The notes under the pieces were generated by a model. The model did no database searches. It was not told the DNA's origin and was given only the letters and a program-made list of their open reading frames with translations. The translations under genes were made by a program, and so were the position numbers. From Candidatus Iainarchaeum sp. (lineage in GTDB: Archaea > Iainarchaeota > Iainarchaeia > Iainarchaeales > JAZDDZ01), in the NCBI GenBank assembly GCA_043809245.1, contig JAZDDZ010000054.1, positions 36,838-100,837 of the forward strand: DNA of 64,000 nt. Direction: 5' to 3'. Position 1 is the stretch's first letter, and each line of letters opens with the position of its first letter. Below, piece by piece: positions 4,722-49,200 of the stretch.

Positions 4722-4731
4722 ATGGGAAAAC

Positions 4732-5550: not shown

Positions 5551-5556
5551 ATGTAA

Positions 5557-6009
5557 ATGGCTGCGAAAAAAGAAGGGAAAAAGAAGGAACACGAGGGCAA
5601 GGGAAAGCCCGCGCAGAAAAAGGAAAAAAAGGCGGAGAAAAAAACAGCCACTGCAAAAAAAGAGGAAGCGAAAAAGGTTGCGATTGAGAAAAAGGAGATT
5701 GTGGAGAAAGTGAAGGAGGAAGCGAAAAAGATTTCCATTGAAGAGCAGCTTAATGCGCTTGAAATTTTAAAGTACCCCTTGATTTCGGAGAAAGCGGTTA
5801 ACATGATTGAATCCGAGAACAAGCTTTGCTTTATAGTTGACCAGCGGGCTTCAAAGGCGGATGTAAAGAAAGCCGTTGAAGGGCTTTACGCTGTAAAGGT
5901 TGACAGGGTTAACATTATTCACGACATGAGGGCGAGAAAAAAGGCCTTGGTGAAAATAAACAAGGCATTCAAGGCGCAGGATGTTGCTACAAAACTTGGT
6001 GTATTGTAA
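5557..6009 (+). CDS. rpl23: Ribosomal protein uL23 with an N-terminal K/E-rich extension
   Basis: ILKYPLISEKAVNMIESENKLCFIVD...KADVKKAVEGLYAVKV core. Conserved position. Confidence 0.85.
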   Translation: MAAKKEGKKKEHEGKGKPAQKKEKKAEKKTATAKKEEAKKVAIEKKEIVEKVKEEAKKISIEEQLNALEILKYPLISEKAVNMIESENKLCFIVDQRASKADVKKAVEGLYAVKVDRVNIIHDMRARKKALVKINKAFKAQDVATKLGVL

Positions 6010-6735
6010 ATGGCAAAGAGAATAAAGTCCCAGAGGGCTGGAAAGGGAAGCCCGACGTTCATGGCGACAAAGAACGGAGTAGCGGACATCAAGTACATTA
6101 CGGTTGGAGAAAAGCAGAGGGACGGAGTGTTAAAGGGAGAGGTAATTGACTTGGTTAACGACCCCGGAAGGACAAGTGTTCTCGCAAAAATAGTGTTCGA
6201 GGACGGAAGAGAGGAGTTTGTGATTGCTGCAGAGGGATTAGGTGTCGGCGACAGGATAGCGTACGGCAGGAAAGCAGGCCTTGCCATTGGAAATGTTTTG
6301 CCTTTAGGTGAATTGGTTGAAGGAGCACCTGTGTTCAACATAGAGAAAGAAATGGGTGATGGGGGAAGGATTGCCCGCGCCTCGGGGCTTTATGCTTTGA
6401 TTATGGCAAAGGACAAGGCAGGGGTAAGCGTTAAATTGCCTTCCGGCAAAATAATTGTTCTGCCGCACGAGTCCAGGGCGACTGTTGGATGCTGCGCCGC
6501 CGGGGGAAGGCCTGAAAAGCCCTTGCTTAAGGCCGGAAGCAACTGGCATAAGTTTCACGCGCGCGGCCACAAGTATCCGGGAGTACGCGGCGTTGCACAG
6601 AACCCATTGTCGCATCCATTTGGCGGTTACCAGCATCATCCTGGAAAGTCAAAGAGCACTTCAAGGCACGCTCCGCCCGGAAGAAAAGTGGGAGCGATTG
6701 CATCAAAGAGGACTGGAAGGAGAAAAAAGAATTAA
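6010..6735 (+). CDS. rpl2: Ribosomal protein uL2
   Basis: MAKRIKSQRAGKGSPTF...GRPEKPLLKAGSNWHKFHARGHKYPGVRGVAQNPLSHPFGG. Confidence 0.92.
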   Translation: MAKRIKSQRAGKGSPTFMATKNGVADIKYITVGEKQRDGVLKGEVIDLVNDPGRTSVLAKIVFEDGREEFVIAAEGLGVGDRIAYGRKAGLAIGNVLPLGELVEGAPVFNIEKEMGDGGRIARASGLYALIMAKDKAGVSVKLPSGKIIVLPHESRATVGCCAAGGRPEKPLLKAGSNWHKFHARGHKYPGVRGVAQNPLSHPFGGYQHHPGKSKSTSRHAPPGRKVGAIASKRTGRRKKN

Positions 6736-6745
6736 AGGTGAATGA

Positions 6746-7150
6746 ATGGCAAAACAGTTTACTTTCCGCGGAAAAACAATCGAGGAACTCAATGCGTTAA
6801 GCATAGAGGAGTTCTCAAAGCTCGTCACGTCAAGGGCGAGAAGGACGCTTAAGAGAAAGGACTTCAAAAAGTTCCTGAAGAAAATCGAGAAGGCAAGGCA
6901 GGCAAAGGCAGGCGGAAAGGATGTCAAGCCAGTGAAAACGCACAGGCGCGACACAATTGTTGTTCCTGCAATGGTGGGATTGAAGGTCGGCATTCACGCC
7001 GGAAAGGAATTCCAGACAGTTGAAATCACTGAGAAAATGCTTGGGCATTTTTTGGGGGAATTTGCGCTTACAAGGAAAAGATTGTTGCACGGAAAAGCCG
7101 GAATAGGCGCCACAAGGTCAAGCACTGCGCTTGTGTCGGCAAGAGGATAA
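6746..7150 (+). CDS. rps19: Ribosomal protein uS19
   Basis: HRRDTIVVPAMVGLKVGIHAGKEFQTVEI...HGKAGIGATRSS. Confidence 0.9.
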   Translation: MAKQFTFRGKTIEELNALSIEEFSKLVTSRARRTLKRKDFKKFLKKIEKARQAKAGGKDVKPVKTHRRDTIVVPAMVGLKVGIHAGKEFQTVEITEKMLGHFLGEFALTRKRLLHGKAGIGATRSSTALVSARG

Positions 7151-7161
7151 AGAAAAAAACA

Positions 7162-7641
7162 GTGAACAAAATGGTGAAGAAAAATTACCAGATAGAGATT
7201 CCGAACGAGAAAAAGATAGCGAAAGCAGTTGCCAAGAATGCGCATGCCTCGCTGAAGTATTCAACGGAGCTCGTGAGGGAATTGAAGGGGCAAAGGCTTG
7301 ACAGGTCCATGGAATTCCTGCAGAGGATAATGGAGAAAAAAGAGCATTTGCCTTTAAGGAGATACAAGAAAAAGGTGCCGCACAGGAAAGGCGAAACAAA
7401 AAGCTTCACGAAAACAGGCCGCTATCCGGTCAAGACCGCGGGGATTTTTTCAAGCCTTTTGGAGTCTGTTAAGTCAAACGCGGATTACAAGGGCCTGGAC
7501 GCGGAGAATTTGCTGATAACGCACATGTTTGTTTCCCAGGGATTTGGAAGGATTGGATACCAGCCGCAGGGAAGGATTTCGGGAAAGGCAAGGAGAAAAA
7601 AGGCGGTTCACTTGGAAGTTGTTGTGACAGAGGCGAAATAA
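7162..7641 (+). CDS. rpl22: Ribosomal protein uL22
   Basis: NYQIEIPNEKKIAKAVAKNAHASLKYSTELVRELKG; operon position. Confidence 0.85.
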   Translation: MNKMVKKNYQIEIPNEKKIAKAVAKNAHASLKYSTELVRELKGQRLDRSMEFLQRIMEKKEHLPLRRYKKKVPHRKGETKSFTKTGRYPVKTAGIFSSLLESVKSNADYKGLDAENLLITHMFVSQGFGRIGYQPQGRISGKARRKKAVHLEVVVTEAK

Positions 7642-7653
7642 TTTTGTTTATGG

Positions 7654-8562
7654 GTGAAAGAAATGATTGAAAAGATTTTCATTGAGCAGGGAGTTAAAAG
7701 AGTGGAATTGGAGGAGTTCTTGAAGAAAGAGCTTGACCGAGCCGGCTTCACAAAGTCGGAGATACAGAAGACTCCGCTTGTAACGCGCATTATAGTCAAT
7801 GTCACAAGGCCCGGGCTTGCGATTGGGAAAAGCGGCGCAAACATAAGGCAGTTGACTGAGATAATCCATTCAAGGTTTGGAATTGAAAACCCGCAGCTTG
7901 AAATAAAGGAGATAACAAAGCCGGAGCTTGACGCAGCCGCAATGGTTAACAGGCTCAAGGCGCTTATTGAGCGAGGGCATTCATGGAGAAGCATTGCATA
8001 CAGGGTGGTAAATGACATTTCGATGGCTGGAGCGCAGGGCGTTGAATTGGTTGTTTCCGGAAAGCTCACGGGAAAAGGCGGAAGGAAGAAAAGGGTCAGG
8101 ATAGCGCAGGGATACATGAAGAAAGTCGGCGACCAGGCTTCGCTTGTTGATTATGCAAAGACAACGGCATATCCAAAGCCGGGTGCGATTGGGATAAAGC
8201 TAAAGCTTGTCAGGCCGGAAACAATTTTCCCGGACAAGGTTAATATTATTGAAATCATCAGGGCGAAAAAGGCAGCTGACTTCAAGGCAGCCAAGGCGCA
8301 GGAAGATAAAAAAGAGGAAGGCGCGGAGGCGGCCGAAGAAGGGAAAACCGAAGTGAAGGCAGCGGAAAAAAAAGAAGAGAAAGACGGAAAAAAGGACGCA
8401 GAGAAAAAGCACGAGGGAAAAAAAGAAGAAAAGCCCGCGGAAAAAAAACACGTTGAGAAGGCGGAGCACGAAAAGAAAGCCGAAGACAAAAAGCACGGGA
8501 AAAAAGAAGAGAAAGCCGAAAAAAAGAACGGGAAAGAAAAAGGAAAGGGCAAGGAAAAGTAA
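7654..8562 (+). CDS. rps3: Ribosomal protein uS3 with a ~95-aa K/E/A-rich C-terminal tail
   Basis: KH domain PLVTRIIVNVTRPGLAIGKSGANIRQLTEII. The tail is EDKKEEGAEAAEEGKTEVKAAEKKEEKDGKKDAEKK... Confidence 0.9.
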   Translation: MKEMIEKIFIEQGVKRVELEEFLKKELDRAGFTKSEIQKTPLVTRIIVNVTRPGLAIGKSGANIRQLTEIIHSRFGIENPQLEIKEITKPELDAAAMVNRLKALIERGHSWRSIAYRVVNDISMAGAQGVELVVSGKLTGKGGRKKRVRIAQGYMKKVGDQASLVDYAKTTAYPKPGAIGIKLKLVRPETIFPDKVNIIEIIRAKKAADFKAAKAQEDKKEEGAEAAEEGKTEVKAAEKKEEKDGKKDAEKKHEGKKEEKPAEKKHVEKAEHEKKAEDKKHGKKEEKAEKKNGKEKGKGKEK

Positions 8563-8581
8563 TGCAAAAAAAAGTGAGTGA

Positions 8582-8821
8582 TTGTTTATGGCTGCGGTGA
8601 AGAAAAAGGATTTGAGGGAAATGCCGAAAGCGGAACTAGAGGAAAAGCTTGCGGAGATAAGCATGGAGCTTGCAAAGGAAAGGGCAATGCTTGCCTCGGG
8701 AACAAGGCCTGAAAAGCCCGCGAAAATAAAGCAGTTAAGGAAAGGCATTGCAAGGATTAAGACTTTCCTGCACCAGAAAAAAATGGGTGAAGGAAATAAA
8801 AAGGATAAAGCAAAGGAGTGA
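8582..8821 (+). CDS. rpl29: Ribosomal protein uL29
   Basis: MAAVKKKDLREMPKAELEEKLAEISMELAKERA...KQLRKGIARIKT. Confidence 0.85.
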   Translation: MFMAAVKKKDLREMPKAELEEKLAEISMELAKERAMLASGTRPEKPAKIKQLRKGIARIKTFLHQKKMGEGNKKDKAKE

Positions 8822-9132
8822 CCAAGGGAATGAAGGATATCTGTGAGAAATGCGGCCTGCCAAAAAACATCTGTGTCTGCGAGGAAATCGAAAAGGAAAC
8901 GCAGAAAATCAGGATTAGGACGCTTTCAAGGAGATTCGGGAAAATCGTCACAATCGTAAGTGGCCTTACGGACAAGGAGCAGGCAAAAGAGCTCGAGAAG
9001 ACGCTGAAAAGAAAGCTTGCGTGCGGCGGAACATTAAAGGGAAGCGAAATAGTATTGCAGGGCGAACACAGGAAAAAAGTCAACGAAATATTGCTAAAGG
9101 AAGGGTTCAAACAGGAGTTGATTGAAGCATAA
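8818..9132 (+). CDS. Translation initiation factor SUI1 (aIF1)
   Basis: CEKCGLPKNICVCEE...IRIRTLSRRFGKIVTIVSGL...KLACGGTLKGSEIVLQGEHRKKV. Conserved archaeal position between rpl29 and rnp1. Confidence 0.8.
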   Translation: MTKGMKDICEKCGLPKNICVCEEIEKETQKIRIRTLSRRFGKIVTIVSGLTDKEQAKELEKTLKRKLACGGTLKGSEIVLQGEHRKKVNEILLKEGFKQELIEA

Positions 9133-9162
9133 AAAATTTTGGTAACTTGTGAAGTGGTTTTT

Positions 9163-9474
9163 ATGGCTGTGAAAGGAAAAGGATATGAAATCAATGCGCG
9201 GAATTTGCTTGCGCATGAATTGATTGGCCTGCAGGCAGAGGTAATCGAAAGCACCGACAGGGGAAGAAAGGGAATCAAAGGCCGGGTTGTTGATGAGACA
9301 ATGAACGTGCTTGTTGTTGAAACCGTGAAAGGGGAGAAAAAGGTTCCGAAAAAAGAGGCAGGGTTTGTTTTTGACCTTGAAGGGGAAAAGGCGTTTGTAG
9401 AGGGCGCATTGCTTTTGGCAAGGCCGGAGGACAGGGTCAAGGTTTTTGTGAAAAAATTCAAAAAGGCATTTTGA
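9163..9474 (+). CDS. rnp1: RNase P protein component 1 (Rpp29/Pop4)
   Basis: LIGLQAEVIESTDRGRKGIKGRVVDETMNVLVVET matches the Rpp29 core. Canonical location between rpl29/SUI1 and rps17. Confidence 0.7.
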   Translation: MAVKGKGYEINARNLLAHELIGLQAEVIESTDRGRKGIKGRVVDETMNVLVVETVKGEKKVPKKEAGFVFDLEGEKAFVEGALLLARPEDRVKVFVKKFKKAF

Positions 9475-9501
9475 GGTCGGAAAAAATTTGAGGTTGTAAA
9501 A

Positions 9502-9930
9502 ATGGCGAAAGATGAAAATAAGGGAAACGCGGTAAAATGCAGTGACGTGAAATGCGCGCTGCACGGAAGCCTTAAAGTGAGGGGAAACCTTTTCACGGGA
9601 AAGGTCGTGAGCGCAAAGGCGGAAAAGACAGTTGTAGTTGAGAGGGAGATAATGCACTTTGTGCACAAATACGAGAGGTATAAGAAGACGGTTTCAAGGA
9701 TTGCGGCTTACAACCCAAAATGCATTGATGCAAAGGAAAACGACATAGTTAAAATCGGGGAGACAAGAAGGCTAAGCAAGACAAAGAGCTTTGTAGTGCT
9801 TGAAAAAATCGGCCACGCAAAGGACATAAGAAGGGAAGAGGCATTCTTTGGCGGAAGCAAAGGCGAAAAAGAATCAGCAGAAGAGGCCGTGGAAGAAAAG
9901 GAAAGCGAAAGGGAAGTTGATGAAAAATGA
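9502..9930 (+). CDS. rps17: Ribosomal protein uS17 with an acidic tail
   Basis: GKVVSAKAEKTVVVEREIMHFVHKYERYKKTVSRIAAYNP...IVKIGETRRLSKTKSFVV. Confidence 0.85.
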   Translation: MAKDENKGNAVKCSDVKCALHGSLKVRGNLFTGKVVSAKAEKTVVVEREIMHFVHKYERYKKTVSRIAAYNPKCIDAKENDIVKIGETRRLSKTKSFVVLEKIGHAKDIRREEAFFGGSKGEKESAEEAVEEKESEREVDEK

Positions 9931-10325
9931 AGGCGATTAATGCGACTCCAACGCAAGGGTTGATGCAGAAAAGCAGGCTTTTGTGCGCTGACAACAGCGG
10001 TGCAAAGGAAGTGGAAATAATCAGCGTTATCGGCTATCATGCGAGGAAAAGGCAGAGCCAGATGGCGGGCATTGCATCGATGGTTAATGTCGTGGTAAAG
10101 AAAGGAAAGCCGGAGATAAGGAAGAAAGTTGAAAGGGCGGTTGTGGTTCGAGTGAGAATGCCTTACAGGAGAAGTGACGGGACAAGGGTTTGCTTTGAGG
10201 ATAATGCAGCAGTAATAGTGGATGAGAAAGGCATTCCAAAGGCATCTGAAGTGAAAGGCGTTGTTGCAAGAGAAGTAGGGGAGAGGTGGCCGAAAGTGGC
10301 CGGGCTTGCTTCCGCGGTTGTTTGA
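9927..10325 (+). CDS. rpl14: Ribosomal protein uL14
   Basis: GLMQKSRLLCADNSGAKEVEIISVIGY...VVVRVRMPYRRSDGTRVCFEDNAAVIVDEKG. Confidence 0.9.
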   Translation: MKAINATPTQGLMQKSRLLCADNSGAKEVEIISVIGYHARKRQSQMAGIASMVNVVVKKGKPEIRKKVERAVVVRVRMPYRRSDGTRVCFEDNAAVIVDEKGIPKASEVKGVVAREVGERWPKVAGLASAVV

Positions 10326-10337
10326 GGTTGAAGATTT

Positions 10338-10778
10338 ATGAATATTGAAAGCGCTAAACCGAAAAAGCAGAGGAAATTCAAGGCAATGCTGCCGCTTCAC
10401 CTTAAAAGAAAGCAGCTCAGCAGCCATTTAAGCAAGGAGTTAAGGAAGGGAATTGGAAGGAGAGCTGTTGAGGCAAGGAAAGGCGACAAGGCAAAGGTTT
10501 TGCGCGGTGACTTCAGGGGAAAAGAGGGAAAAATTGTAAGGGTTGACGTTGCAAGGCAGAAGTTATTCATTGAAAAGCTTGTGAGGAAAAAGGCTGACGG
10601 CACGGAAAAGCTTGTTCCATTTAACGCATCGAATCTTTTGCTTGTTGAACTCGAAAGAAGCGATGACAGAAGATTCAGGGAAAGGAAAGGCACGGGCAAA
10701 ATGAATGGCAAAAAGGAAAAAGAAGCAGGCGAAGTTAAAGCTGGAAAAAAAGAAGAAAAAACTGAAGGGAAGAAATAG
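10338..10778 (+). CDS. rpl24: Ribosomal protein uL24 (KOW) with a K/E tail
   Basis: KGDKAKVLRGDFRGKEGKIVRVDVARQKLFIEKL. Confidence 0.85.
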   Translation: MNIESAKPKKQRKFKAMLPLHLKRKQLSSHLSKELRKGIGRRAVEARKGDKAKVLRGDFRGKEGKIVRVDVARQKLFIEKLVRKKADGTEKLVPFNASNLLLVELERSDDRRFRERKGTGKMNGKKEKEAGEVKAGKKEEKTEGKK

Positions 10779-10790
10779 GAGTTGTAGGGT

Positions 10791-11537
10791 ATGGCTAAGA
10801 AAGGTGAAGGGAAAAGCCAGAAAAGGCTGAGCGCGCAGAAGGCAATGTTTTTGCCTAGAAAAGGAAAGGTTTGGGCGATAAAGGGAAGGCCGGGGCCGCA
10901 CAGCAGCCAGGCATCAGTGCCATTGGGTTTTGTTTTAAGGGATTTGCTTGGAATCGCGAAGACTTTAAAGGAAGCGAAAAAAATCCTTTTAAGCGGCGCA
11001 GTGCATGTAAATGGAGTTGTTAGAACCGAGTACAGGCTTCCAGTGGGAATTTTTGACCTCATTGAATTGCCTGGGGTGAAAAAAGTTTACAGGGCAGTCA
11101 TTGACTCAAAGCAAAGGATTGCGGTAAGGGTTTTGGATGCAAAAGCCGAGAAGGCAAGGATCTGCAAGGTCACGGGAAAAAAGACCGCGAAAAAAGGAAT
11201 GGTGCAATTGACCTTCAATGATGGCACGGTTTTGCTTGAAAAGAAAACAAAGCTGAAATGCATGGATTCCGCGAAATTAAGCGTGCCTGAAAAAAAGATT
11301 TTGGCAGAACTTGCGTTAAGCGAGGGAAGCCTTGCCTATCTTTTGACTGGAAAATCCGCGGGAGCTGTCGCAAGAATCAAAAAGATTTTCGAGGCCACGA
11401 TGAGAAAGCCGAGAGTAGTCGAGCTTGAGCAGGGAAAAAATGTTTTCCAGACAAACGCGGAAAACGTGCTTGTGGTCGGAGAAAAAAAATTGGAGATTGA
11501 CTTGGGAATAGAGGAAGAAAAAAATAAAAGGGAATGA
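10791..11537 (+). CDS. rps4e: Ribosomal protein eS4
   Basis: KRLSAQKAMFLPRKGKVWAIKGRPGPHS...VHVNGVVRTEYRLPVGIFDLIEL. Confidence 0.88.
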   Translation: MAKKGEGKSQKRLSAQKAMFLPRKGKVWAIKGRPGPHSSQASVPLGFVLRDLLGIAKTLKEAKKILLSGAVHVNGVVRTEYRLPVGIFDLIELPGVKKVYRAVIDSKQRIAVRVLDAKAEKARICKVTGKKTAKKGMVQLTFNDGTVLLEKKTKLKCMDSAKLSVPEKKILAELALSEGSLAYLLTGKSAGAVARIKKIFEATMRKPRVVELEQGKNVFQTNAENVLVVGEKKLEIDLGIEEEKNKRE

Positions 11538-11543
11538 AAGAAC

Positions 11544-12065
11544 ATGGGCGAAAGCAACAACCACATGAGGGAAATAGAGATTGAAAAGGTCACGGTAAAC
11601 ATGGGTGTTGGCCAGACAGGGCAGGAACTCGACAAGGCATGCACTATCCTTGAGAACATCACGGGAATGAAGCCATTGAGGACTTCATGCAAGGTCAGGA
11701 TTCCGACCTGGGGTATAAGGGAAGGCCTGCTTATCGGCGCGAAGGTTACCTTGCGCGGAAAAAAAGCCGAGGAATTCCTTAAAAAGGCATTGAATGCAAA
11801 GGACAATTCGGTTAAGGGGAAAAGCTTTGACCAGAAAGGAAACTTTGGCTTTGGGGTAAAGGAGCATATTGACATGCCGGGAGTAAAATACGACCCAAAG
11901 TTAGGCATAAGGGGCTTGGATGTGCTTGTTACGCTTAAAAGGCACGGGGGATACAGGCTTAGAAGGAGAAAAATCGGCAAGAAAAGCATTGGTTCAAGGC
12001 ACTCATTGAAAAAAGCCGAGGCAATGGAGTTTGTGAAAAAAAAATTTGGGGTTGAAGTGAAATGA
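11544..12065 (+). CDS. rpl5: Ribosomal protein uL5
   Basis: IEIEKVTVNMGVGQTGQELDKA...GIRGLDVLVTLKRHGGYRLRRRK. Confidence 0.9.
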   Translation: MGESNNHMREIEIEKVTVNMGVGQTGQELDKACTILENITGMKPLRTSCKVRIPTWGIREGLLIGAKVTLRGKKAEEFLKKALNAKDNSVKGKSFDQKGNFGFGVKEHIDMPGVKYDPKLGIRGLDVLVTLKRHGGYRLRRRKIGKKSIGSRHSLKKAEAMEFVKKKFGVEVK

Positions 12066-12226
12066 GCGAAAAAGGAAAACTTGGCTTTGGAAAAACGCAG
12101 TCCGCGGGAAAAAAGTGCAGGAGATGCAAGAACAGGCGCGGGCTTATCTCAAAGTATGGAATGAAGCTTTGCAGGCGCTGCTTCAAGGACGTTGCCTTGC
12201 AGATGGGTTTCAAGAAATTCGATTAG
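12062..12226 (+). CDS. rps14: Ribosomal protein uS14 (Zn-binding type, 54 aa; below the ORF-track cutoff)
   Basis: ATGA overlap with the rpl5 stop. Translates to MSEKGKLGFGKTQSAGKKCRRCKNRRGLISKYGMKLCRRCFKDVALQMGFKKFD (a CxxC...CxxC zinc ribbon). Confidence 0.8.
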   Translation: MSEKGKLGFGKTQSAGKKCRRCKNRRGLISKYGMKLCRRCFKDVALQMGFKKFD

Positions 12227-12240
12227 TGAGATTAATGAAA

Positions 12241-12330
12241 GATTTAGGAAAAATATATAGAGGAAGGGAATCGGGAGGAACCTGGAACTGAAGGGAAACC
12301 TAGGTTTCCCTGCGGTTCGGATGGGGTTCA
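12241..12330 (+). promoter_or_regulatory. Conserved promoter + 5'-leader cassette, copy A (TATA-like AAAATATATA, then GAGGAAGGGAATCGGGAGG...GGGAAACC-TA-GGTTTCCC hairpin ...TGCGGTTCGGATGG), upstream of rps8
   Basis: Near-identical cassette found at 4 loci. An 8-bp perfect hairpin is present. See findings. Confidence 0.6.
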
Positions 12331-12372
12331 AAAAATTTGACTGAATTTGGAGTTTGTGGAGAGTGAATGAGA

Positions 12373-12765
12373 ATGACATTGGTTGACCCGATTGCTGACG
12401 CGCTAGTCAACATAAAGAACCACGAGAATGCCTCGAAAAAACTATGCATTGTCAGGCCTGCGGCAAAGCTTTTGGGCGAAATACTGCGCGTCATGCAGGA
12501 GCAGGGCTACATCAGCACCTACGAGTTCGTTGATGATGGAAGGGAGGGCCTTTACAAGATAAACCTTATGGGAAAAATAAACGAGTGCAAGGCAATCAAG
12601 CCCCGGTACGCAGTCAGGAAAAACGAGTTTGAAAGATACGAGAAAAGGTATCTTCCCGCAAAAGACGTGGGCTCGTTGATTGTGAGCACCCCCCGCGGGG
12701 TTATGACGCACAATGGCGCAAAGGAAAAGGAAATCGGCGGAAGGCTGATAGCTTACATTTACTGA
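12373..12765 (+). CDS. rps8: Ribosomal protein uS8
   Basis: MTLVDPIADALVNIKNHENASKK...GVMTHNGAKEKEIGGRLIAYIY. Confidence 0.88.
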   Translation: MTLVDPIADALVNIKNHENASKKLCIVRPAAKLLGEILRVMQEQGYISTYEFVDDGREGLYKINLMGKINECKAIKPRYAVRKNEFERYEKRYLPAKDVGSLIVSTPRGVMTHNGAKEKEIGGRLIAYIY

Positions 12766-12794
12766 ATGAAAAAAATTGATGGAAAAGTGGGATT

Positions 12795-13358
12795 ATGGAA
12801 GACTTTGAAAGGAAAATCAGCTTGCCGGAAGGATTTGAGGCTTCGGCTGAGGGAAGCAAGATGACTGTCGGCTTCAAGGGAAAACAACTGGTTAAGGACT
12901 TCCACGCGCAATCGCTTTCATTCGATGTAAAGGGAAAAGAAATAGTGGTTTCAATCGCGAACGGAAAGGCAAAGAAAAGGGATTTGGCTGTGTTGAACGC
13001 AGTAAATTCCGAGATAAACAACATGCTTGCAGGGTTGTCAAAGGGATTCGAGTACAAGTTAGAGGTCGTGTACGCGCACTTCCCGATGAACATCAGTGTC
13101 AAGGAAAAAGTTGTGGAAATAAGCAATCTCTGCGGAAGCAAGATGGTCAGAAGGGCGGCAATTGTCGGTGAAACAAAGGTAGAGATAAAGGGAAAAGAGA
13201 TATTTGTCAGGGGCGCGGACAAGGAAGCCGCAGGGCAGACAGCGGCAAACATAGAGCAGGCAACAAGGCTGTCGGGAAAAGACGTAAGGGTATTCAACGA
13301 CGGCATTTACATTGTTTCAAAGCCGCATGTTTCAATTGAAGAGCGTGAAAAGAAATGA
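12795..13358 (+). CDS. rpl6: Ribosomal protein uL6
   Basis: Two-domain L6 pattern (ISLPEGFEASAEGSKMTVGFKGKQL...VRGADKEAAGQTAANIEQATR). Confidence 0.88.
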   Translation: MEDFERKISLPEGFEASAEGSKMTVGFKGKQLVKDFHAQSLSFDVKGKEIVVSIANGKAKKRDLAVLNAVNSEINNMLAGLSKGFEYKLEVVYAHFPMNISVKEKVVEISNLCGSKMVRRAAIVGETKVEIKGKEIFVRGADKEAAGQTAANIEQATRLSGKDVRVFNDGIYIVSKPHVSIEEREKK

Positions 13359-13984
13359 CTGAAAAAAAATCTGTGAAGAAAGCGGAAAAGCCGAAGGCAA
13401 AGAATGCCGTGAAAAAAGAAGAGAAAAAGGCGGCTGTGGAAAAAGTGCACGAAAAAAAAGAGCACAATGAAGCCGCAAAGCAAGTTGAGGAAAAAAAAGA
13501 GGCTGCAAAAGAGTCTTTGGGAAAAGGAAAAGATGCAAAGGAAGCAAAGGGAAAAAAGGCGAAGAAAGAAAAGCCGTCAAAGCCCAAGGCAAAAGGCAGG
13601 GGCAAAGGGCTTTCGGAAGAGGTTAAAAAGCTGAGGAAACAAATCGCCAGAAAAAAACTGCCTTCATTCAGGGGCAGGTTCGGCGAAAGGGGAAGGACAA
13701 GGAAGATAAGCAGGGAGAAATTCATGAAGTGGAGGAAGCCGCGCGGCATTGACATTAAGTTCAAGCAAGAGGACGGCGCGCTTCCAAGGACTGGTTACAA
13801 GGCCCCGAGAGAGATAAGGTTTTTGCATCCCTCGGGTTTCAGGGAAGCCCTTGTTTCAAATGCAATGCAGCTTGAAATGTTTGAAAAGAATGTGGTTGCA
13901 AGGATTGCGGGAACAGTTGGAGAAAAGAAGAGAAGGGAAATTGTGAAGAAAGCCAAGGAATTGGGTGTGAGGCTGCTTAATTGA
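13355..13984 (+). CDS. rpl32e: Ribosomal protein eL32 with an ~80-aa K/E-rich N-terminal extension
   Basis: FMKWRKPRGIDIKFKQEDGALPRTGYKAPREIRFLHPSGF core. Confidence 0.85.
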   Translation: MTEKKSVKKAEKPKAKNAVKKEEKKAAVEKVHEKKEHNEAAKQVEEKKEAAKESLGKGKDAKEAKGKKAKKEKPSKPKAKGRGKGLSEEVKKLRKQIARKKLPSFRGRFGERGRTRKISREKFMKWRKPRGIDIKFKQEDGALPRTGYKAPREIRFLHPSGFREALVSNAMQLEMFEKNVVARIAGTVGEKKRREIVKKAKELGVRLLN

Positions 13985-14009
13985 TTTGCGCTTTGAAAAG
14001 GTGTGAAAG

Positions 14010-14462
14010 ATGATATTGGATAAAATCAGGGAAATTTCCGCAGGGCTGCTGAAAATAGGCAAAAGCAAGGTCTGGTTTGACTCAGAAAAGCTTGACCAGA
14101 TAAAGGAAGCCATGACTAAAGAGGATGTCAGGGGCCTTATAGCGGAAAAAGCGATAGGGAAGAAAAAGCCCTCACAGCACAGCAGGGGAAGGGCAAGGGT
14201 CCTGCACCAGAAAAAGAAAAAGGGAAGAAAAAGGGGCTACGGCAAAAGAAAAGGCCTTCAAAGCGCGAGGGAGAAAACAAAGGAGAAATGGATGCTGCTC
14301 TCAAGGGCTTTGAGGAAAAAGCTCAAGGAAATGAAGGGCAAAAAGGAAAAATTGAAGGTGGATTACAGGAAGCTTTATAATTTAAGCAAGGGCGGCTACT
14401 TTAAGGGAAAAAAATACCTTGAGGCTTACGCGCTTGGAAAAGAAACCAAGGAGAAAAAATAG
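14010..14462 (+). CDS. rpl19e: Ribosomal protein eL19
   Basis: MILDKIREISAGLLKIGKSKVWFDSEKLDQIKEAMTKEDVRGLIAEKAI. Confidence 0.85.
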   Translation: MILDKIREISAGLLKIGKSKVWFDSEKLDQIKEAMTKEDVRGLIAEKAIGKKKPSQHSRGRARVLHQKKKKGRKRGYGKRKGLQSAREKTKEKWMLLSRALRKKLKEMKGKKEKLKVDYRKLYNLSKGGYFKGKKYLEAYALGKETKEKK

Positions 14463-14484
14463 CAAAGGAAAGGAATGAATTGTT

Positions 14485-15000
14485 ATGACACATAAAACAA
14501 CCTACACTATGCCCTTCAGAAGGAGAAGAGGGGAGAAAACAAATTACAAGAAAAGGCTTGCATTGCTCAAGTCAGGCAAGCCAAGGCTTGTTGTCAGGAA
14601 AACTAACGCGAATTTTCTCGCGCAGATAGTGAAGTTCATGCCAAAGGGAGATGAAACAGTCGCATCAGCGAATTCAAGCGAACTGAAAAAATTCGGCTGG
14701 AACAGCCATAAGGGAAATTTGCCCACCGCATACCTCGTTGGGTTTGCATGCGCACTCAAGGCAAAGAAAAAGGAAGTGAAAGAAGCAGTGCTTGACATAG
14801 GGCTTTATACGCCGGTGCACGGCTCAAGGGTTTTCGCGGCGCTCAAGGGCGCGGTTGACGCGGGCATGCAAATAGCGCTTGACGAAAAGGTTTTCCCGAA
14901 AGAGGAAAGGCTCAAAGGAAAGCACATAAGCGAAAAAATCGCGCAGGAATTCGAAAAGGCAAAAAAAGAGATTGAGTTAAAGATAGGTGAAGCGAAATGA
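14485..15000 (+). CDS. rpl18: Ribosomal protein uL18
   Basis: FRRRRGEKTNYKKRLALLKSGKPRLVVRKTNANFLAQIV. Confidence 0.85.
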   Translation: MTHKTTYTMPFRRRRGEKTNYKKRLALLKSGKPRLVVRKTNANFLAQIVKFMPKGDETVASANSSELKKFGWNSHKGNLPTAYLVGFACALKAKKKEVKEAVLDIGLYTPVHGSRVFAALKGAVDAGMQIALDEKVFPKEERLKGKHISEKIAQEFEKAKKEIELKIGEAK

Positions 15001-15812
15001 GTGAAAAAGAAAGCGCAAAAAAGAAGGAAGAAAAAGTGAAGACTGTGGAAGAAGAGGAAGCCGTTGAGGCGGTAGTGGAAGCCGTGGAACTGCCTGAAGC
15101 AGTTGCGGACGATGAAGAAATCGGAGAAAGGTTTGAGAGCCTTGACAAAAGAGACGAAAGGATGAGGGCACTCGATAAATGGGTTCCGCGGACAGAGTTG
15201 GGGAGAAAAGTCAAGGACAAGGAGATAAGCTCCCTTGAAGAGGTGTTCCAGAAAAATTACAAGATAATGGAGCCGCAGATAGTCGACTCTCTTTTGGGCG
15301 ATGTACATGAAAAAATGATTGGCTTTACCAAGACCACAAGGGTTATTGCAGCTGGAAGGCAGTTTTCGTTCCGGGCAGCGGTTATTGTAGGGGATGGAAA
15401 GAGCTATGTCGGCGTTGGAACAGGAAAGGACCGCGAGAGATGGCCTGCAATAAGGAAAGCGGGAAAAAACGCAAAACTGCACTTGATTAAGGTAAGGAAA
15501 GGCTGCGGAAGCTGGGAGTGCACGTGCGGAACCTCGCATTCAGTGCCGTTCAAAGTTGAGGGAAGTTCCAGTTCAGTCAGGGTAATACTTTACCCTGCGC
15601 CAAAGGGAACAGGCCTTGTGATAGGCGACAAGGTAAAGGATGTTTTAAGGTTTGTCGGAATACGGGATGTCTGGAGCGACACAAGGGGCAGCACGGATAC
15701 AACACTTGACTTTGTGCAGGCGACAATCAATGCTTTAAGCAAGACAACCTCGATGAAGGTTTCAAATGACATCGAGGCAAAAACAAAGGGAAATGAAAGG
15801 GGAGAATACTAA
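14997..15812 (+). CDS. rps5: Ribosomal protein uS5 with an acidic N-terminal extension
   Basis: S5 dsRBD + C-terminal domain (RTELGRKVKDKEISSLEEV...TRVIAAGRQFSFRAAVIVGDGKSYVGVGTGK). Confidence 0.9.
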   Translation: MSEKESAKKKEEKVKTVEEEEAVEAVVEAVELPEAVADDEEIGERFESLDKRDERMRALDKWVPRTELGRKVKDKEISSLEEVFQKNYKIMEPQIVDSLLGDVHEKMIGFTKTTRVIAAGRQFSFRAAVIVGDGKSYVGVGTGKDRERWPAIRKAGKNAKLHLIKVRKGCGSWECTCGTSHSVPFKVEGSSSSVRVILYPAPKGTGLVIGDKVKDVLRFVGIRDVWSDTRGSTDTTLDFVQATINALSKTTSMKVSNDIEAKTKGNERGEY

Positions 15813-16279
15813 TGTTTGCAGTGATTAGAATCAGGGGCAGCGTTGACTTGAATTCCGAGAAAAAGAAAACCCTCGAATTTCTCAGGCTTGACAGGGTAAA
15901 CCATTTGGTGCTTGTGCCGCAGACAGCGAGCATAAAGGGAATGGTGAAAAAAGTCGAGGACACAGTAACCTTTGGGGAAATAAACGATGAAACCATTGGA
16001 AAGCTGATTGAGAAAAGGGGAAGAATGCAGGGAGACAAGATTTTCGGGACAGCGGGCTTGAAGAAGGCAGCTGGCAAGGCAAAGGACTTCAAGGAATTGG
16101 GCCTGGCATTGCTGCAGGGAAGGGTTTCACTTAAAGAACTGGGTTTGAAGCCAGTGTTCAGGCTCAGGCCGCCGAGAAAAGGCTTTGAAAGAAAGGGAAT
16201 AAAGAGAAACTTTTCAATCGGGGGCGCAGCAGGTTACAGGGGAACGGAAATAAACAAATTAATCGAGAAAATGATTTAA
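15812..16279 (+). CDS. rpl30: Ribosomal protein uL30
   Basis: MFAVIRIRGSVDLNSEKKKTLEFLRLDRVNHLVLV. Confidence 0.85.
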   Translation: MFAVIRIRGSVDLNSEKKKTLEFLRLDRVNHLVLVPQTASIKGMVKKVEDTVTFGEINDETIGKLIEKRGRMQGDKIFGTAGLKKAAGKAKDFKELGLALLQGRVSLKELGLKPVFRLRPPRKGFERKGIKRNFSIGGAAGYRGTEINKLIEKMI

Positions 16280-16286
16280 TGGAAAA

Positions 16287-16802
16287 ATGCGTTTGGTGAA
16301 AAAAATGACTGTAAGGAAGAGAAGAAAAGTAAACAAGATGCGCGGAAAAAGGCTGCATGGCGCCGGGGACACCAAGAACAGGCGCGGCTCTGGCTGCAGG
16401 GGCGGGGTAGGACGCGCGGGCAACCACAAGCACAAATTCACCAAATACTACATGGAATTCGGGACAAAAATAACTCTGAAGGCAAAGCAAAAAGGCAAGG
16501 CAATCAACCTCGATGATTTGCAGAAAAACCTCGCGAAATGGATTGGCGAAAAAAAGGTTGAAAAGGCCTCGGGAACAATTGAGTTCGACGGAAAGAAAGT
16601 TGGCATTGCAAAAATCCTTTCAAGGGGAAGCATCAGCGAAAAAATTTCATTCAAAAACGTTTCATTCAGCGAAAATGCAAGGCAAAAAGTGCTCGCTGCG
16701 GGCGGAAAAATCGAGGGCACGGCAAAAGAAGAAGGATTTGGCGAGGAAGACGATGACTTTGAGGCAGCCGGGGAAAACGAAGAGGGAAAAGCGGAGAAGT
16801 GA
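16287..16802 (+). CDS. rpl15: Ribosomal protein uL15 with an acidic tail
   Basis: KRRKVNKMRGKRLHGAGDTKNRRGSGCRGGVGRAGNHKHKF. Confidence 0.85.
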   Translation: MRLVKKMTVRKRRKVNKMRGKRLHGAGDTKNRRGSGCRGGVGRAGNHKHKFTKYYMEFGTKITLKAKQKGKAINLDDLQKNLAKWIGEKKVEKASGTIEFDGKKVGIAKILSRGSISEKISFKNVSFSENARQKVLAAGGKIEGTAKEEGFGEEDDDFEAAGENEEGKAEK

Positions 16803-16809
16803 AAATTGA

Positions 16810-18204
16810 ATGGGTTTCCTTGAATGGTTTGAACCGATTTACAGGCTTTTGCCCGAAGTAAAAAGCCCTGAAGTAAAGCCGACCCTGAAAAAAAGGCTGA
16901 TGTGGACAGCACTTGCGCTTGTAATTTTTTACATAATGGGAAACATCCAGGTTATTGGGATAACCGCTTCATCTGCAGGGCAGCTTGAGCAACTGCAGGT
17001 AATACTTGCATCCGAAATAGGAACACTGATTACGGTTGGAATTGGCCCAATTGTTTTGGCTTCAATTATTCTGCAGCTTTTGATTGGAGGCGGCCTGATT
17101 GACGCGGACTTGACTGACCCGAAAACAAAGGCAAGGTTCACTTCAATGCAGAAACTCATGGCCATAGTGCTCTGCTTTTTTGAGTCAGCAATTTACGTCT
17201 TAAGCGGATTCATTGCCCCTGACCCGGGAATGCTTCTGTTTGTCGTATTACAGATTTCCTTGGGCGCAATATTATTGATTTACCTTGATGAAGTTGTTTC
17301 AAAGTACGGCATTGGTTCAGGCATTGGATTGTTCATTGCGGCAAACGTCGCGGGAAGCGTGTTCTGGAGGGTTTTCGCTCCGCCAATCGCTTTACAGGGC
17401 CAGCTCGCGGGCGGAATTTTAAGCCAGTTCATTGACTCTGTCGCAAGCGGAAGCATTAACCTGATAATATTGCTGCCGTTGCTTTTCACGTTAATTGTTT
17501 TTGTCGTGGTAACATTCGCGGAAGGAATGCATGTGAACATTCCGCTCACGATGGGCCCTCGCGGAGTGGGCGGAAGGTTTCCCGTCAAATTCCTTTACGT
17601 TTCAAACATTCCAGTCATACTTGCAGCAGCGCTATTCGCTAATTTGCGGCTGTGGGCAGAGTTCACTAAAACCGTGCCAGTATTGGGGTATGTGTTAAAT
17701 GGAGTTGCTACAATTGTTGTCGCGCCTTACGGCCTGATTGAAAAAATGCTTTTACAGGGAGTTTCATTTGACGTTTTCGGGCAAATGCTTGACAGCATAT
17801 TGAAATTACAGATAATAGGGCTTGGAGGCGAAATAATACACGCGATCCTCTACATAATTATTTTGACTGTGCTTTGTGTTGTTTTCGGAAAATTCTGGGT
17901 TGACATGGGCGGACAGGGCACTGAAGCCGTGAGCAACCAATTGCAGAAAGCGGGAATGAGCATCCCAGGTTTCAGGAAGGACCCGCGCATTATAAGGAAA
18001 GTGCTTGAAAGGTACATTCCCCCTGTAACTGTTTTGGGCTCGATTTTCGTGGGGTTGCTTGCTGGCTTTGCGGACTTGACAGGCGCGCTTGGCTCAGGCA
18101 CAGGCATACTGCTAACGGTTGGAATTGTTTACAGGCTTTACGAGGACCTTGCAAAAGAGCAGGTTGCGGAAATGTACCCAATGCTTGGAAGGTTTTTCAC
18201 TTGA
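16810..18204 (+). CDS. secY: Preprotein translocase SecY
   Basis: 10-TM SecY/Sec61alpha pattern. Follows rpl15 as in all archaea. Confidence 0.9.
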   Translation: MGFLEWFEPIYRLLPEVKSPEVKPTLKKRLMWTALALVIFYIMGNIQVIGITASSAGQLEQLQVILASEIGTLITVGIGPIVLASIILQLLIGGGLIDADLTDPKTKARFTSMQKLMAIVLCFFESAIYVLSGFIAPDPGMLLFVVLQISLGAILLIYLDEVVSKYGIGSGIGLFIAANVAGSVFWRVFAPPIALQGQLAGGILSQFIDSVASGSINLIILLPLLFTLIVFVVVTFAEGMHVNIPLTMGPRGVGGRFPVKFLYVSNIPVILAAALFANLRLWAEFTKTVPVLGYVLNGVATIVVAPYGLIEKMLLQGVSFDVFGQMLDSILKLQIIGLGGEIIHAILYIIILTVLCVVFGKFWVDMGGQGTEAVSNQLQKAGMSIPGFRKDPRIIRKVLERYIPPVTVLGSIFVGLLAGFADLTGALGSGTGILLTVGIVYRLYEDLAKEQVAEMYPMLGRFFT

Positions 18205-18346
18205 ACGAGGAAGGGGAATTGATTGGAATAAGGGAAATTTTTAATGAAAGGGGCATGGGTTTAATAATGAATGGCAGCAAAAATAATTATACGCAAATAA
18301 CGCCATTTTGCTTCAAATCCCCCGTTAAATGGCTTAAAAAGGTGGT

Positions 18347-18841
18347 TTGCTGATGGTTATTTTCTCCCCAATCATAGACATTGCATTGGTTGCCTTTGGC
18401 TTGGCATTGGTTTCAATGGTCCTGCAGGTGAAGCTTTTCAAGAAAAGGGAGAAGGCATTAATTCAGAAAAAAATCAAGGAAATACAGAAAAAAATAAGCG
18501 AGCTCACAAAAAAAGGCGGGGACAAAAAGGAAATTGACAGGCTGCAGGAGGAAATGTTAAAGCTGTTGAACGAGCAGATGAAGGACATGCCAAAGCAGAT
18601 GATTGTCTCAATGATAATCTTCCTTCCCCCATTTTACTTCATCCGCGAAATTTACGGAAACAGCATTCACATGCTGCATCCTTTCGGCCTTGACATACCC
18701 CTTTTTGGAACAACAATGGGCTGGTTTGAGGTGTACATAATTTGCTCGCTTATCTCGAGCCTTGTGCTGAATGCAATTGTTGACGCTTACGAGAAAAATA
18801 AAGTAAAAAATGAAAACGGAAACAAAATTGTTAAGGGATAA
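18347..18841 (+). CDS. DUF106 / archaeal Oxa1-YidC-like (EMC3-like) membrane insertase
   Basis: TM - coiled-coil (KKIKEIQKKISELTKK) - TM-TM topology. Conserved position downstream of secY in archaeal r-protein clusters. Confidence 0.55.
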   Translation: MLMVIFSPIIDIALVAFGLALVSMVLQVKLFKKREKALIQKKIKEIQKKISELTKKGGDKKEIDRLQEEMLKLLNEQMKDMPKQMIVSMIIFLPPFYFIREIYGNSIHMLHPFGLDIPLFGTTMGWFEVYIICSLISSLVLNAIVDAYEKNKVKNENGNKIVKG

Positions 18842-19186
18842 TTGATGCCGAGAAGAAGCCAAAGGTCAAAGAGCAAAAAGTTCAGGAAGACTCCTGGGGG
18901 AAAAACAAAGACGCATTACTTTAAGGGCAAGGGAAGCAAGCACGAGTGCGCTTCATGCGGAAAGCAATTGCACGGAGTGCCGCATTCAAGGAAAAACTTT
19001 GAGGTAAGGAACCTTTCGAAAAGCCAGAGAAGGCCAAGCGCATTGTTCGGCGGCGTGCTCTGCGGAAAATGCAGGCGCATTGTTGTAGAGGAAACCGCAA
19101 AAGTAAAGCACGGATTGAAGGAAGCGGGGGATGTTTCGCTTTCGTTGAAAAAATTCGTGGAACAGGCAATGAAAAAAGTTGATTAA
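18842..19186 (+). CDS. rpl34e: Ribosomal protein eL34
   Basis: MMPRRSQRSKSKKFRKTPGGKTKTHYFKGKGSKHECASCGKQLHGV. Confidence 0.8.
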   Translation: MMPRRSQRSKSKKFRKTPGGKTKTHYFKGKGSKHECASCGKQLHGVPHSRKNFEVRNLSKSQRRPSALFGGVLCGKCRRIVVEETAKVKHGLKEAGDVSLSLKKFVEQAMKKVD

Positions 19187-19424
19187 GGGAATGTTTATGG
19201 CTGGAGCAATAGAGATTGGAAGCATTTGCGTTAAGACCACTGGCAGAAGCGCGGGAAAAACCGCTGTAGTGGTTGACTTTGACAAGGAAGGCTTTGCGGT
19301 TATTGACGGCACTGCGCTGAAAAGAAAAAAATGCAATATAAGGCATTTATTGCCCACTGGAAAAAAAGTTGAGATAAAAAAAGGCGCCTCGCACGAAGAA
19401 GTGGTTAAAAAATTAAAGGGGTAA
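19179..19424 (+). CDS. rpl14e: Ribosomal protein eL14 (KOW)
   Basis: AIEIGSICVKTTGRSAGKTAVVVDFDKEGFAVIDG...NIRHLLPTGKKVEIKKGASHEEV. Confidence 0.7.
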   Translation: MIKGMFMAGAIEIGSICVKTTGRSAGKTAVVVDFDKEGFAVIDGTALKRKKCNIRHLLPTGKKVEIKKGASHEEVVKKLKG

Positions 19425-19433
19425 TTGGTTTTT

Positions 19434-20063: not shown

Positions 20064-20074
20064 AAAAAGGAGCT

Positions 20075-20165
20075 AAGATGAAATAAAAATCTGCGGAGGA
20101 AGGGGGTCAGGAAGACCCTGAAACTGGGGGGAAACCCTAGGTTTCCCGCGGTTTGGAAGGAAAAG
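20075..20165 (+). promoter_or_regulatory. Conserved promoter + 5'-leader cassette, copy B (GGGAAACC-CTA-GGTTTCCC hairpin, then GCGGTTTGGAAGG), upstream of rps4
   Basis: Same cassette as 12241-12330. Confidence 0.6.
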
Positions 20166-20180
20166 AAAAAGTGATGATTT

Positions 20181-43383: not shown

Positions 43384-43475
43384 GGTAAAGATTTAGGAAA
43401 AATGCATAGAGGAGAGGGGTCAGGATTAACATAAAACTGGGGGAGAACATTAGGTTCTCCCGCGGTTTTGAAAAA
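43384..43475 (+). promoter_or_regulatory. Conserved promoter + 5'-leader cassette, copy C (GATTTAGGAAAAATGCATAGAGGAGAGGGGTCAGG...GGGAGAAC-ATTAG-GTTCTCCC hairpin ...GCGGTTTTG), upstream of dut
   Basis: Same cassette as 12241-12330. The first 14 nt are identical to copy A. Confidence 0.6.
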
Positions 43476-49104: not shown

Positions 49105-49200
49105 AGTTTAAGATGAAGGAAAAATATATGCAGGAGGGGAATCAGGAAATACCTAAAACTGAAGGGGAACCTGGGTTCCCCTGCGGTTTGGAAGGAGTGA
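49105..49200 (+). promoter_or_regulatory. Conserved promoter + 5'-leader cassette, copy D (AAGATGAAGGAAAAATATATG...GGGGAACC-TG-GGTTCCCC hairpin ...TGCGGTTTGGAAGG), upstream of rps27a
   Basis: Same cassette as 12241-12330. Confidence 0.6.

Follow-up and report, generated by a model that had tools for sequence, protein, structure and literature searches.

Small structure-defined elements of DPANN archaea as a probable family of non-autonomous mobile elements

Introduction

The BoxC, PIT and TMECO repeats of Enterobacteria and Cyanobacteria are interspersed, multi-copy and non-coding. In one strand a purine block of the reverse-Hoogsteen type is combined with a second purine block and with a pyrimidine block complementary to it, and by the purine motif (G.G-C, A.A-T) this strand can form a hairpin joined by a third strand (Holder et al. 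2015, PMC4666352, and Hoyne & Maher cited therein). BoxC/PIT repeats are also linked to genomic rearrangement and block DNA polymerase in vitro (PMC4666352). In the archaeal Methanomicrobiaceae, repeats with potential quadruplex sequences (PQS; C3TC3) are made of G-runs followed by a complementary C-rich tract and can change in vitro from one to another of three folds, a hairpin, an antiparallel triplex and a G-quadruplex (Chashchina et al. 2021, PMC8044849); these interspersed repeats lie between genes, and genes do not dictate their orientation. Here we describe a ~60-nt element that occurs four times in a 64,000-nt stretch of DNA from Candidatus Iainarchaeum sp. (contig JAZDDZ010000054.1, positions 36,838 to 100,837 of the forward strand; hereafter the window). 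Judged by its architecture, its closest known kind appears to be these interspersed intrastrand-triplex repeats (BoxC/PIT and the repetitive PQS, or rPQS, of Methanomicrobiaceae).

As in BoxC/PIT, block 1 of the element mirrors purine block 2 (7/7 positions in the window copies) and block 3 is the Watson-Crick complement of block 2 (97.2% of cells paired). The differences are several. BoxC belongs to class II (pyrimidine block first), is restricted to G/C and has 3- to 6-nt loops, whereas the DPANN element would be of class I with covarying mixed A/G triples (PMC4666352). Its conserved 20-nt connector exceeds the 1- to 6-nt loops in the definition of intrastrand triplex-forming sequences (ITxF; PMC4666352), and it has an extra outer helix, an invariant U.G pair and an R.G mismatch that set it apart from BoxC. 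It is further associated with target duplications, empty sites and tRNA introns, and the duplications and tRNA introns go unmentioned in the searched passages of PMC4666352. The Methanomicrobiaceae repeats have four G-runs, 1- to 5-nt loops and no conserved connector, and belong to a different lineage (PMC8044849); the results section of that paper contains neither target duplications nor a tRNA association, both of which are found in the DPANN element.

A preliminary description of the window presented the four copies as a promoter and 5'-leader cassette placed before unrelated translation and nucleotide-metabolism operons. We argue that they belong, with better than even probability, to a DPANN (Micrarchaeota/Iainarchaeota-like) family of mobile elements that are small, non-autonomous and defined by their structure.

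Results and Discussion

The four window copies and their family

The recurrence of the cassette was borne out by both an nhmmer profile of the four copies and a covariance model run with filters off, which recovered the four sites reported before, all on the + strand, and no further copy in the 64 kb. The copies scored 69 to 74 bits, and the reverse strand at the same sites scored 8 to 18 bits. Pfam assigned the neighbors as S14/A/S8, S13/B/S4-S11, Ndk/C/dUTPase-aIF5B and S24e/D/S27a; the copies are therefore intergenic within conserved clusters and not, as had been proposed, at the heads of operons. The features are as follows.

12239..12320, +: copy A (73.5 bits), between the S14 stop (12226) and the S8 ATG (12367)
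12239-12260 and 12261-12320, +: 22-nt A/T-rich extension and 60-nt core of copy A
12264..12270, +: purine tract AAGGGAA of copy A, proposed reverse-Hoogsteen third strand, mirror of 12291-12297
12281..12320, +: whole hairpin of copy A
12281-82 with 12319-20: basal 2 bp of copy A, CC with GG
12285-90 with 12313-18: outer helix of copy A, GAACTG with CGGTTC
A12291.G12312: mismatch of copy A
12292-12300 with 12303-11: inner stem of copy A, AGGGAAACC with GGTTTCCCT
20075..20156, +: copy B (68.8 bits), between the S13 stop (20063) and the S4 ATG (20181); extension 20075-20096, core 20097-20156, tract AAGGGGG 20100-06 mirroring GGGGGAA 20127-33
43388..43470, +: copy C (69.4 bits), between the Ndk stop (43383) and the dUTPase ATG (43495); extension 43388-43409, core 43410-43470, tract AGAGGGG 43413-19 mirroring GGGGAGA 43440-46
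49110..49191, +: copy D (74.2 bits), between the S24e stop (49099) and the S27a ATG (49206); extension 49110-49131, core 49132-49191, tract AGGGGAA 49135-41 mirroring AAGGGGA 49162-68

The family was harvested by a degenerate core pattern, then by a looser pattern and then by the covariance model. The degenerate pattern found 17 loci in Micrarchaeota, Iainarchaeum and unclassified archaeal metagenome-assembled genomes (MAGs), plus one chance match in Nitrospira; the looser one found at least 120 metagenome loci, giving at least about 150 copies in all, and the covariance model returned 101 matches. No match was found in IMG/VR (2.9 million viral contigs). Rfam gave 0 gathering-score hits over the whole window, which agrees with the earlier remark that the element was not recognised as a described archaeal ribosomal protein (r-protein) leader or riboswitch. 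The best score of a permissive Rfam search around copy A, 15.8 bits, fell short of a 70-bit cut-off, and every E-value was 2 or more. We found no description of the element in Rfam or in the literature searched.

What is conserved across genomes is only the ~60-nt core, (G)GGRRGGGRR-UCMGGA-RRANCNUNR-AACUG-R-[free stem]-loop-[stem']-G-CGGUU-Y-NG. AACTG, GCGGTT and certain G/C positions were set by the search patterns, so their invariance is partly by construction. The 22-nt A/T-rich extension with its "TATA" box (AAGATKWARKAAAAAT...), formerly counted as part of the conserved unit, is common to the four window copies; in most other copies the upstream sequence is unrelated, and only L007 is similarly A/T-rich (L numbers denote harvested loci). 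The functional unit is the core, and the extension is an addition of the window's subfamily. Copies A and C do share the 14-nt stretch GATTTAGGAAAAAT, as described earlier. The cores of the window copies diverge by ~20%, and their groupings conflict, A going with C by extension and with D by core.

Hairpin and proposed third strand

The hairpin had been described as an 8-bp perfect stem differing between copies by compensatory changes. The covariation and the structural constraint hold, and the stem proved to be larger and irregular: RNAalifold and pair counting over 94 distinct members support a 15-bp hairpin composed of an outer helix (AACUG/CGGUU) with a covarying 2-bp extension, a 1x1 R.G mismatch and an inner stem of 8 to 10 bp. 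Among these members 97.2% of the cells are paired, versus 83.0 +/- 0.5 in shuffles (0/500) and 36 to 60% in slid controls, and compensatory changes on both sides occur in 11/15 pairs (237 compensatory cells). The inner stem takes 47 different sequences in 132 distinct cores, while the outer helix contains an invariant U.G pair and the 1x1 R.G mismatch is always present. The 2-bp extension below the outer helix covaries (CG/GC/UA), so that the 3 nt following GCGGTT are part of the fold. By secondary structure only (ViennaRNA), the purine-rich (top) strand folds 3 to 5 kcal/mol better than its complement. Further copies and covariation in relatives, which the preliminary description had set beforehand as a test, were both found, in the form of the 101 covariance-model matches and the double changes in 11 of the 15 pairs.

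The 7 nt directly 5' of UC(A/C)GGA turned out to be the mirror image of the 7 nt directly 3' of AACUG, that is, of the mismatch purine and the six bases that begin the purine strand of the stem. The leading mirror run averaged 6.1 in 101 distinct tract/stem combinations, compared with 1.97 +/- 0.26 for tracts re-paired with the stems of other copies (maximum, 2.9 in 1000). Mirror positions 1 to 6 carry the same base in 88 to 97 of the 101 combinations, with A/A and G/G both common and T opposite A as the commonest exception; for 9 of the 18 stem states the commonest tract is the identical mirror. Two chance hits show no such relation between tract and stem. The window stems AAGGGAA (A), GGGGGAA (B), GGGGAGA (C) and AAGGGGA (D) are each mirrored 7/7, and copies B, C and D, which tell a mirror from a direct repeat, exclude the latter. 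A Watson-Crick alternative, in which the 5' tract pairs with the 3' strand, was rejected, being marginal (6.5 versus 6.2 +/- 0.11 in the control) and explaining the tract far less well than the mirror rule.

The same base, an antiparallel register and the tolerance of T opposite A make up the rule of the purine (reverse-Hoogsteen) triple-helix motif. We infer that the 7-nt purine tract may occupy the major groove of the stem and run antiparallel to its purine strand, forming G.G-C, A.A-T and T.A-T triples. The family thus offers a covariation-based case for a purine-motif triple helix under selection in vivo, and we know of no comparable one. With its third strand 5' and its conserved 20-nt connector, the predicted fold would be a purine-motif intrastrand triplex of what Holder et al. 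call class I (PMC4666352). According to the same paper, RNA does not form purine-motif triplexes, and repeats of this kind stop DNA polymerase in vitro, which points to a folded single-stranded DNA form.

Several other structures were considered and dropped. Copy B alone folds a small 5' hairpin (GGGUC...GACCC), which is inconsistent across the family, and the window copies have too few G-runs for a G-quadruplex. Resemblances to C/D box, H/ACA, K-turn and hammerhead RNAs, to group II domain V and helix 8 of the signal recognition particle (SRP) RNA, and to a long Shine-Dalgarno (SD)/anti-16S pairing were dismissed by eye, the defining nucleotides being variable or missing.

Empty sites and flanking repeats

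Synteny with the window is seen at L016, a locus of an Iainarchaeum MAG with 67 to 76% nucleotide identity, which places the source among the DPANN archaea of that neighborhood. The S14-S8 junction, filled by copy A in the window, is empty in L016 (S14 stop, 12 nt, S8 ATG); conversely, the L30-L15 junction has a core in L016 and is empty in the window. At the rpoD-tRNA junction L090 has two cores, and the window has 20 nt without an element. A supposed empty site for copy C in L090 was dropped, since the synteny of L090 with the window ends at the copy C site.

Significant direct repeats of 19 to 75 nt flank ~25 non-redundant copies. The downstream repeat begins 2 to 5 nt past GCGGTT, which is the foot of the hairpin, and the upstream repeat ends 0 to 60 nt before the core. 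Perfect repeats are found at L016 (20 nt), L010 (19 nt) and L059 (23 nt). Most of the repeats span a stop codon or a stop/start junction, so that both neighboring genes are kept intact. In copy A the two repeats are:

12202..12226, +: upstream flanking repeat, ATG GGT TTC AAG AAA TTC GAT TAG, the last 7 S14 codons and stop
12320..12344, +: downstream flanking repeat, ATG GGG TTC AAA AAA TTT GAC TGA

Both read MGFKKFD*, and every difference between them is synonymous or stop-to-stop. Taken together, the empty sites and repeats show that elements are gained at new sites with a long target duplication of variable length (19 to 75 nt), and that the 3' junction is precise at the hairpin foot and the 5' junction ragged, with 0 to 60 extra nt and, in one case, microhomology. 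That case is L063 (700-900, +), where two different cores follow each other at one target (...CAAACTTGGCA|GTAGGGG), giving three target copies, and where the native sequence past the target shares GTAGGGG with the 5' end of the core. L114 has the same insertion as L063, with a C/T synonymous polymorphism swapped between the upstream and downstream repeats. Tandem and partial copies also occur in a GC-rich subfamily. At L003 (640-760) a stretch of 25 nt (gggaagggtcaggattaacctttca) separates the upstream repeat from the core; its letters resemble a 3'-truncated copy of the core's 5' part. An assembly artefact is an unlikely source of the repeats, as their geometry is constant over many assemblies and perfect repeats also occur, and adenine mutagenesis of the diversity-generating retroelement (DGR) type was rejected as a source of the repeat differences, which are not A-specific.

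These features set the element apart from the usual small mobile elements. Like MITEs (miniature inverted-repeat transposable elements), repetitive extragenic palindromes (REPs) and bacterial interspersed mosaic elements (BIMEs), it is small, non-coding, multi-copy, structured, located intergenically or at gene ends and dependent on functions supplied in trans. Its ends (AGGAAGGG... and ...GCGGTTYGG), however, are by eye not inverted repeats, and its duplications are 19 to 75 nt and variable, whereas those of MITEs are a fixed 2 to 10 bp. Its only hairpin is accompanied by a third-strand tract, and no transposase or REP-associated tyrosine transposase (RAYT) is linked to it, which further separates it from MITEs and REPs. 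Elements derived from insertion sequences (IS) of the IS200/IS605 type (PATE) and REPs carry subterminal hairpins at both ends and make no target duplication, in contrast to the one hairpin and long duplications seen here. No TnpA or RAYT gene was found on the one contig examined, by which gene linkage is weakly tested; that contig, bounded by two copies, carries ordinary metabolic genes only and no mobility gene.

The precise boundary 2 to 5 nt past GTT, the strand-specific folding and a conserved structure with free stem sequence would also suit a folded single-strand recombination or nicking site (attC-like, or of the HUH/relaxase/IS200 type) at which a recombinase or nickase acting in trans would cut, immediately 3' of the hairpin foot. 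In attC sites, R'' (RYYYAAC) and R' (GTTRRRY) boxes pair at the base of a bulged hairpin, and the sites form cassette arrays. The element does have AAC and GTT at its base, as in these boxes, yet the flanks read (C/T)N(A)AAC and GTTYNG, so that the consensus is matched in part only, with Y at the first R position. Neither the conserved 5' tract nor the connector has a counterpart in attC or IS200-type sites, known attC and IS200/IS605 insertions lack a 19- to 75-nt target duplication, and the copies sit singly between essential genes without forming cassette arrays. In favor of such a site, integrons have been reported in archaea (PMC9668308); no integrase or HUH gene was present on the one copy-bounded contig examined. 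We regard such a site as quite an unlikely explanation.

Genomic contexts of the family

Within 150 nt of a predicted tRNA lie 24 of 148 copies, 20 of them in the orientation of the tRNA. In at least four loci, L005, L006, L046 and L118, the core is inside a confidently predicted tRNA intron of ~100 to 110 nt, and direct reading of the sequence places its end in L005 and L006 ~4 nt before the 3' splice site. Other cores end 1 to 8 nt upstream of mature tRNAs, one is in a 16S-tRNA-Ala spacer, and cores are also found after a ribonucleotide-reductase-like C-terminus and inside the C-terminus of a phosphoenolpyruvate (PEP)-utilising enzyme. Copies at L009, L017 and L097 abut opposite-strand genes or tRNAs. 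A crude comparison of copy orientation with that of long open reading frames gave ambiguous results in GC-rich loci. This range of contexts (tRNA introns, leaders, spacers and opposite-strand neighbors) does not support a function specific to translation genes. A strict hBHBh' scan (two 3-nt bulges 4 bp apart) gave 2 candidates in copy A (0.9 expected) and 0 in copies B, C and D, but it also misses the true intron copies L005, L006, L046 and L118 and so does not count as a valid negative.

The contexts bear directly on the function proposed in the preliminary description, a cis-regulatory promoter and 5'-leader cassette in which an archaeal TATA box drives transcription and a 5'-untranslated region hairpin binds a protein or protects the mRNA, so as to coordinate the genes for r-proteins, dUTPase and the initiation factor. 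Downstream of each window copy, at most 45 nt away, there are indeed an SD and a start codon, as was claimed. The extension (AAGATNNANNAAAAAT) is common to the four copies and has 0-mismatch occurrences only there; all four run in the same direction as highly expressed genes, and their hairpin shows covariation. Most family members nonetheless lack the extension, so that no TATA box is conserved wherever the element occurs; the core is found in tRNA introns, spacers and unrelated gene ends, sometimes by opposite-strand genes or tRNAs; the sites are internal to conserved operons; and orthologous junctions in relatives are tight and element-free, such as the 12 nt between S14 and S8. If the AAAAAT box served as the TATA box, a ~25-nt spacing would put the start inside the core and downstream of the conserved purine tract, and such an RNA would leave the conservation of the tract unexplained. 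A shared leader of this kind is accordingly doubtful to a considerable degree, and the alternative offered with it, a small mobile promoter module, comes close in its mobile part. The window-specific extension may have promoter activity of its own.

The coincidence of 5' junctions with stop codons would fit a domesticated structural element, REP/BIME-like, in which a hairpin or triplex at gene ends serves as an mRNA 3'-end protector, processing site, pause or termination signal, and coordinated three-way changes preserve the structure even within the window's own set of four. The position at stop codons is equally expected if purifying selection acted on random insertions, and the tRNA-intron and tRNA-upstream copies would go unexplained; we hold this to be unlikely. 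At L012 (-) and L047 (+) a coding sequence holds the core within its 3' end. The upstream one of the two C-terminus copies runs on into the core and stops there, at the conserved AACTGA in L012 and at a TAG in the hairpin loop in L047, and the downstream copy keeps the natural C-terminus and stop with the frame intact.

The tRNA-linked copies recall a short interspersed element (SINE)-like retroposon, in which a processed RNA, for example an excised tRNA intron or a leader released by RNase P, ends a few nt past GCGGUU and is copied at a target nick by a reverse transcriptase (RT) acting in trans. The core of L005 and L006 ends at the same offset from the 3' splice site, ~4 nt, as from the insertion junction, and the ends 1 to 8 nt before mature tRNA 5' ends and the 20/24 copies in tRNA orientation point the same way. 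Target-primed reverse transcription (TPRT) of SINEs and long interspersed elements (LINEs) likewise leaves a precise 3' end, a variable 5' junction with microhomology, extra bases and truncated copies, target duplications of variable length and an association with tRNA genes. The likeness ends there: no RT was found or is linked to the element, it has no internal promoter and neither an A-rich nor any other priming tail, its host is a prokaryote, and some copies adjoin opposite-strand genes or tRNAs. The window extension lies upstream of the transcription start expected from its own putative promoter, and the mirror rule fits a purine-motif triplex, a structure reported not to form with RNA strands (PMC4666352) and hence pointing away from an RNA intermediate. 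An RNA-mediated route therefore seems to us unlikely. Should it apply, this would be, to our knowledge, the first SINE-like retroposon family described in archaea. In Thermoproteales, Fujishima et al. reportedly described mobile bulge-helix-bulge tRNA introns in 2010. There, too, related short sequences occur in introns of different archaeal tRNA genes, which suggests intron transposition; most DPANN copies, by contrast, are outside tRNAs and flanked by duplications.

Proposed mode of spread

The junction anatomy, which is unlike that of a DDE transposon, IS200/IS605 or attC, resembles templated insertion by strand switching. The active form would be a folded single strand, more likely of DNA than of RNA, and copying might proceed by template switching onto the 3' end of the folded strand during DNA synthesis, in the manner of TPRT or microhomology-mediated break-induced replication (MMBIR), and not by a cut-and-paste transposase; both points are weaker inferences than the triplex. 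The copies that survive are those whose duplication leaves the upstream stop codon and the downstream start intact, which accounts for their location at gene junctions, tRNA flanks and tRNA introns. Effects on the adjoining r-protein genes, such as an internal promoter or mRNA end protection, would be secondary. In its strongest and most tentative form, which we think improbable, the element has no enzyme of its own, and what spreads is the 60-nt triple-helix fold as such, carried to new sites when a polymerase switches template or when excised tRNA introns are reverse-transcribed; new tRNA introns and intergenic spacers in the reduced DPANN genomes would arise in this way.

A number of observations weigh against this interpretation. 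The triplex is deduced only from covariation among related copies, whose events are not independent, and its 20-nt connector is much longer than in characterized intrastrand triplexes. No RT, HUH nuclease or integrase is linked to the element. Transcription of the core takes place at least within pre-tRNAs, which means that it does occur as RNA, and what is conserved may be a structure of RNA plus protein. The A/T-rich extension is kept in the four window copies despite ~20% core divergence and could be selected, for example as a promoter. Copies B and D are without a convincing flanking repeat; the adjoining coding sequence there is low-complexity and A-rich, which makes repeats impossible to judge. 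Finally, the flanking repeats differ by 39 synonymous codon changes, versus 15.8 expected (maximum, 28 in 2000 simulations), a bias that a target duplication decaying neutrally does not predict.

The synonymous bias is seen in individual loci: L069 has 7/7 synonymous differences, L072 5/5 and copy A 4/4 plus the stop-to-stop change, and in L047 and L138 the differences are mostly so. By codon position the nucleotide differences number 25/21/53, totals that take in non-coding GC-rich arrays. A relic tRNA end in L097 has decayed, unlike the coding repeats. Homologous recombination with alleles of element-free strains, which would overwrite either repeat, is the source we favor for the synonymous-only divergence; recombination tracts from such alleles must end at the element, and the polymorphism swapped between L063 and L114 is compatible with this account. 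Campbell-type re-integration of excised circles, or expression of both repeats, are alternatives. The synonymous-only divergence may be a usable signal of inter-strain homologous recombination in uncultured populations. More broadly, the element is abundant in very small DPANN genomes, yet it sits inside their most conserved operons and tRNA genes. As a natural system it connects non-B DNA structure with insertions and duplications, and it offers a possible route for the origin of archaeal tRNA introns and intergenic spacers.

Other observations

The GC-rich subfamily (stem GGGGGAGGGGG; L085 1-960, also L025, L031, L119 and L122; metagenomes Ga0272448 and Ga0078972) is very abundant in one community and sits at many contig ends. 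Here the core and further hairpins make up a composite unit of ~340 nt that is repeated in tandem arrays, both head-to-tail and partial copies being present; the arrays could be satellite-like or derived from rolling-circle replication. In practical terms the element breaks up metagenome assemblies, its copies lying at contig ends, and it hides tRNAs from default tRNA finders. At L106 (1180-1606, -) a complete intron-less tRNA-Lys(UUU) is followed by 10 nt, a core, 47 nt with a TATA-like box and a second tRNA-Lys(UUU), whose T-loop is interrupted by a 42-nt intron; an entire tRNA gene makes up the flanking "repeat" at this locus, and its copies differ by the intron.

In the window, the regions 4000-24000 and 40000-50000 show a very strong purine and GC skew (up to 0.36), with nearly all genes on the + strand. 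The purine-rich folding strand of all four copies is this same + strand, which is the non-template strand for transcription. S13 (19425-20063; 212 aa, Pfam domain at residues 49-180) and S24e (48755-49099) carry long Lys/Glu-rich terminal extensions. A default ARAGORN scan of the window found no tRNA, and the intron option gave one, an intron-containing class II tRNA of Leu or Ser type at 21843-21980 (+), 20 nt past the rpoD stop. The element is absent from the intron of this tRNA, which ARAGORN identified as Ser-TGA with an intron of 52 nt.

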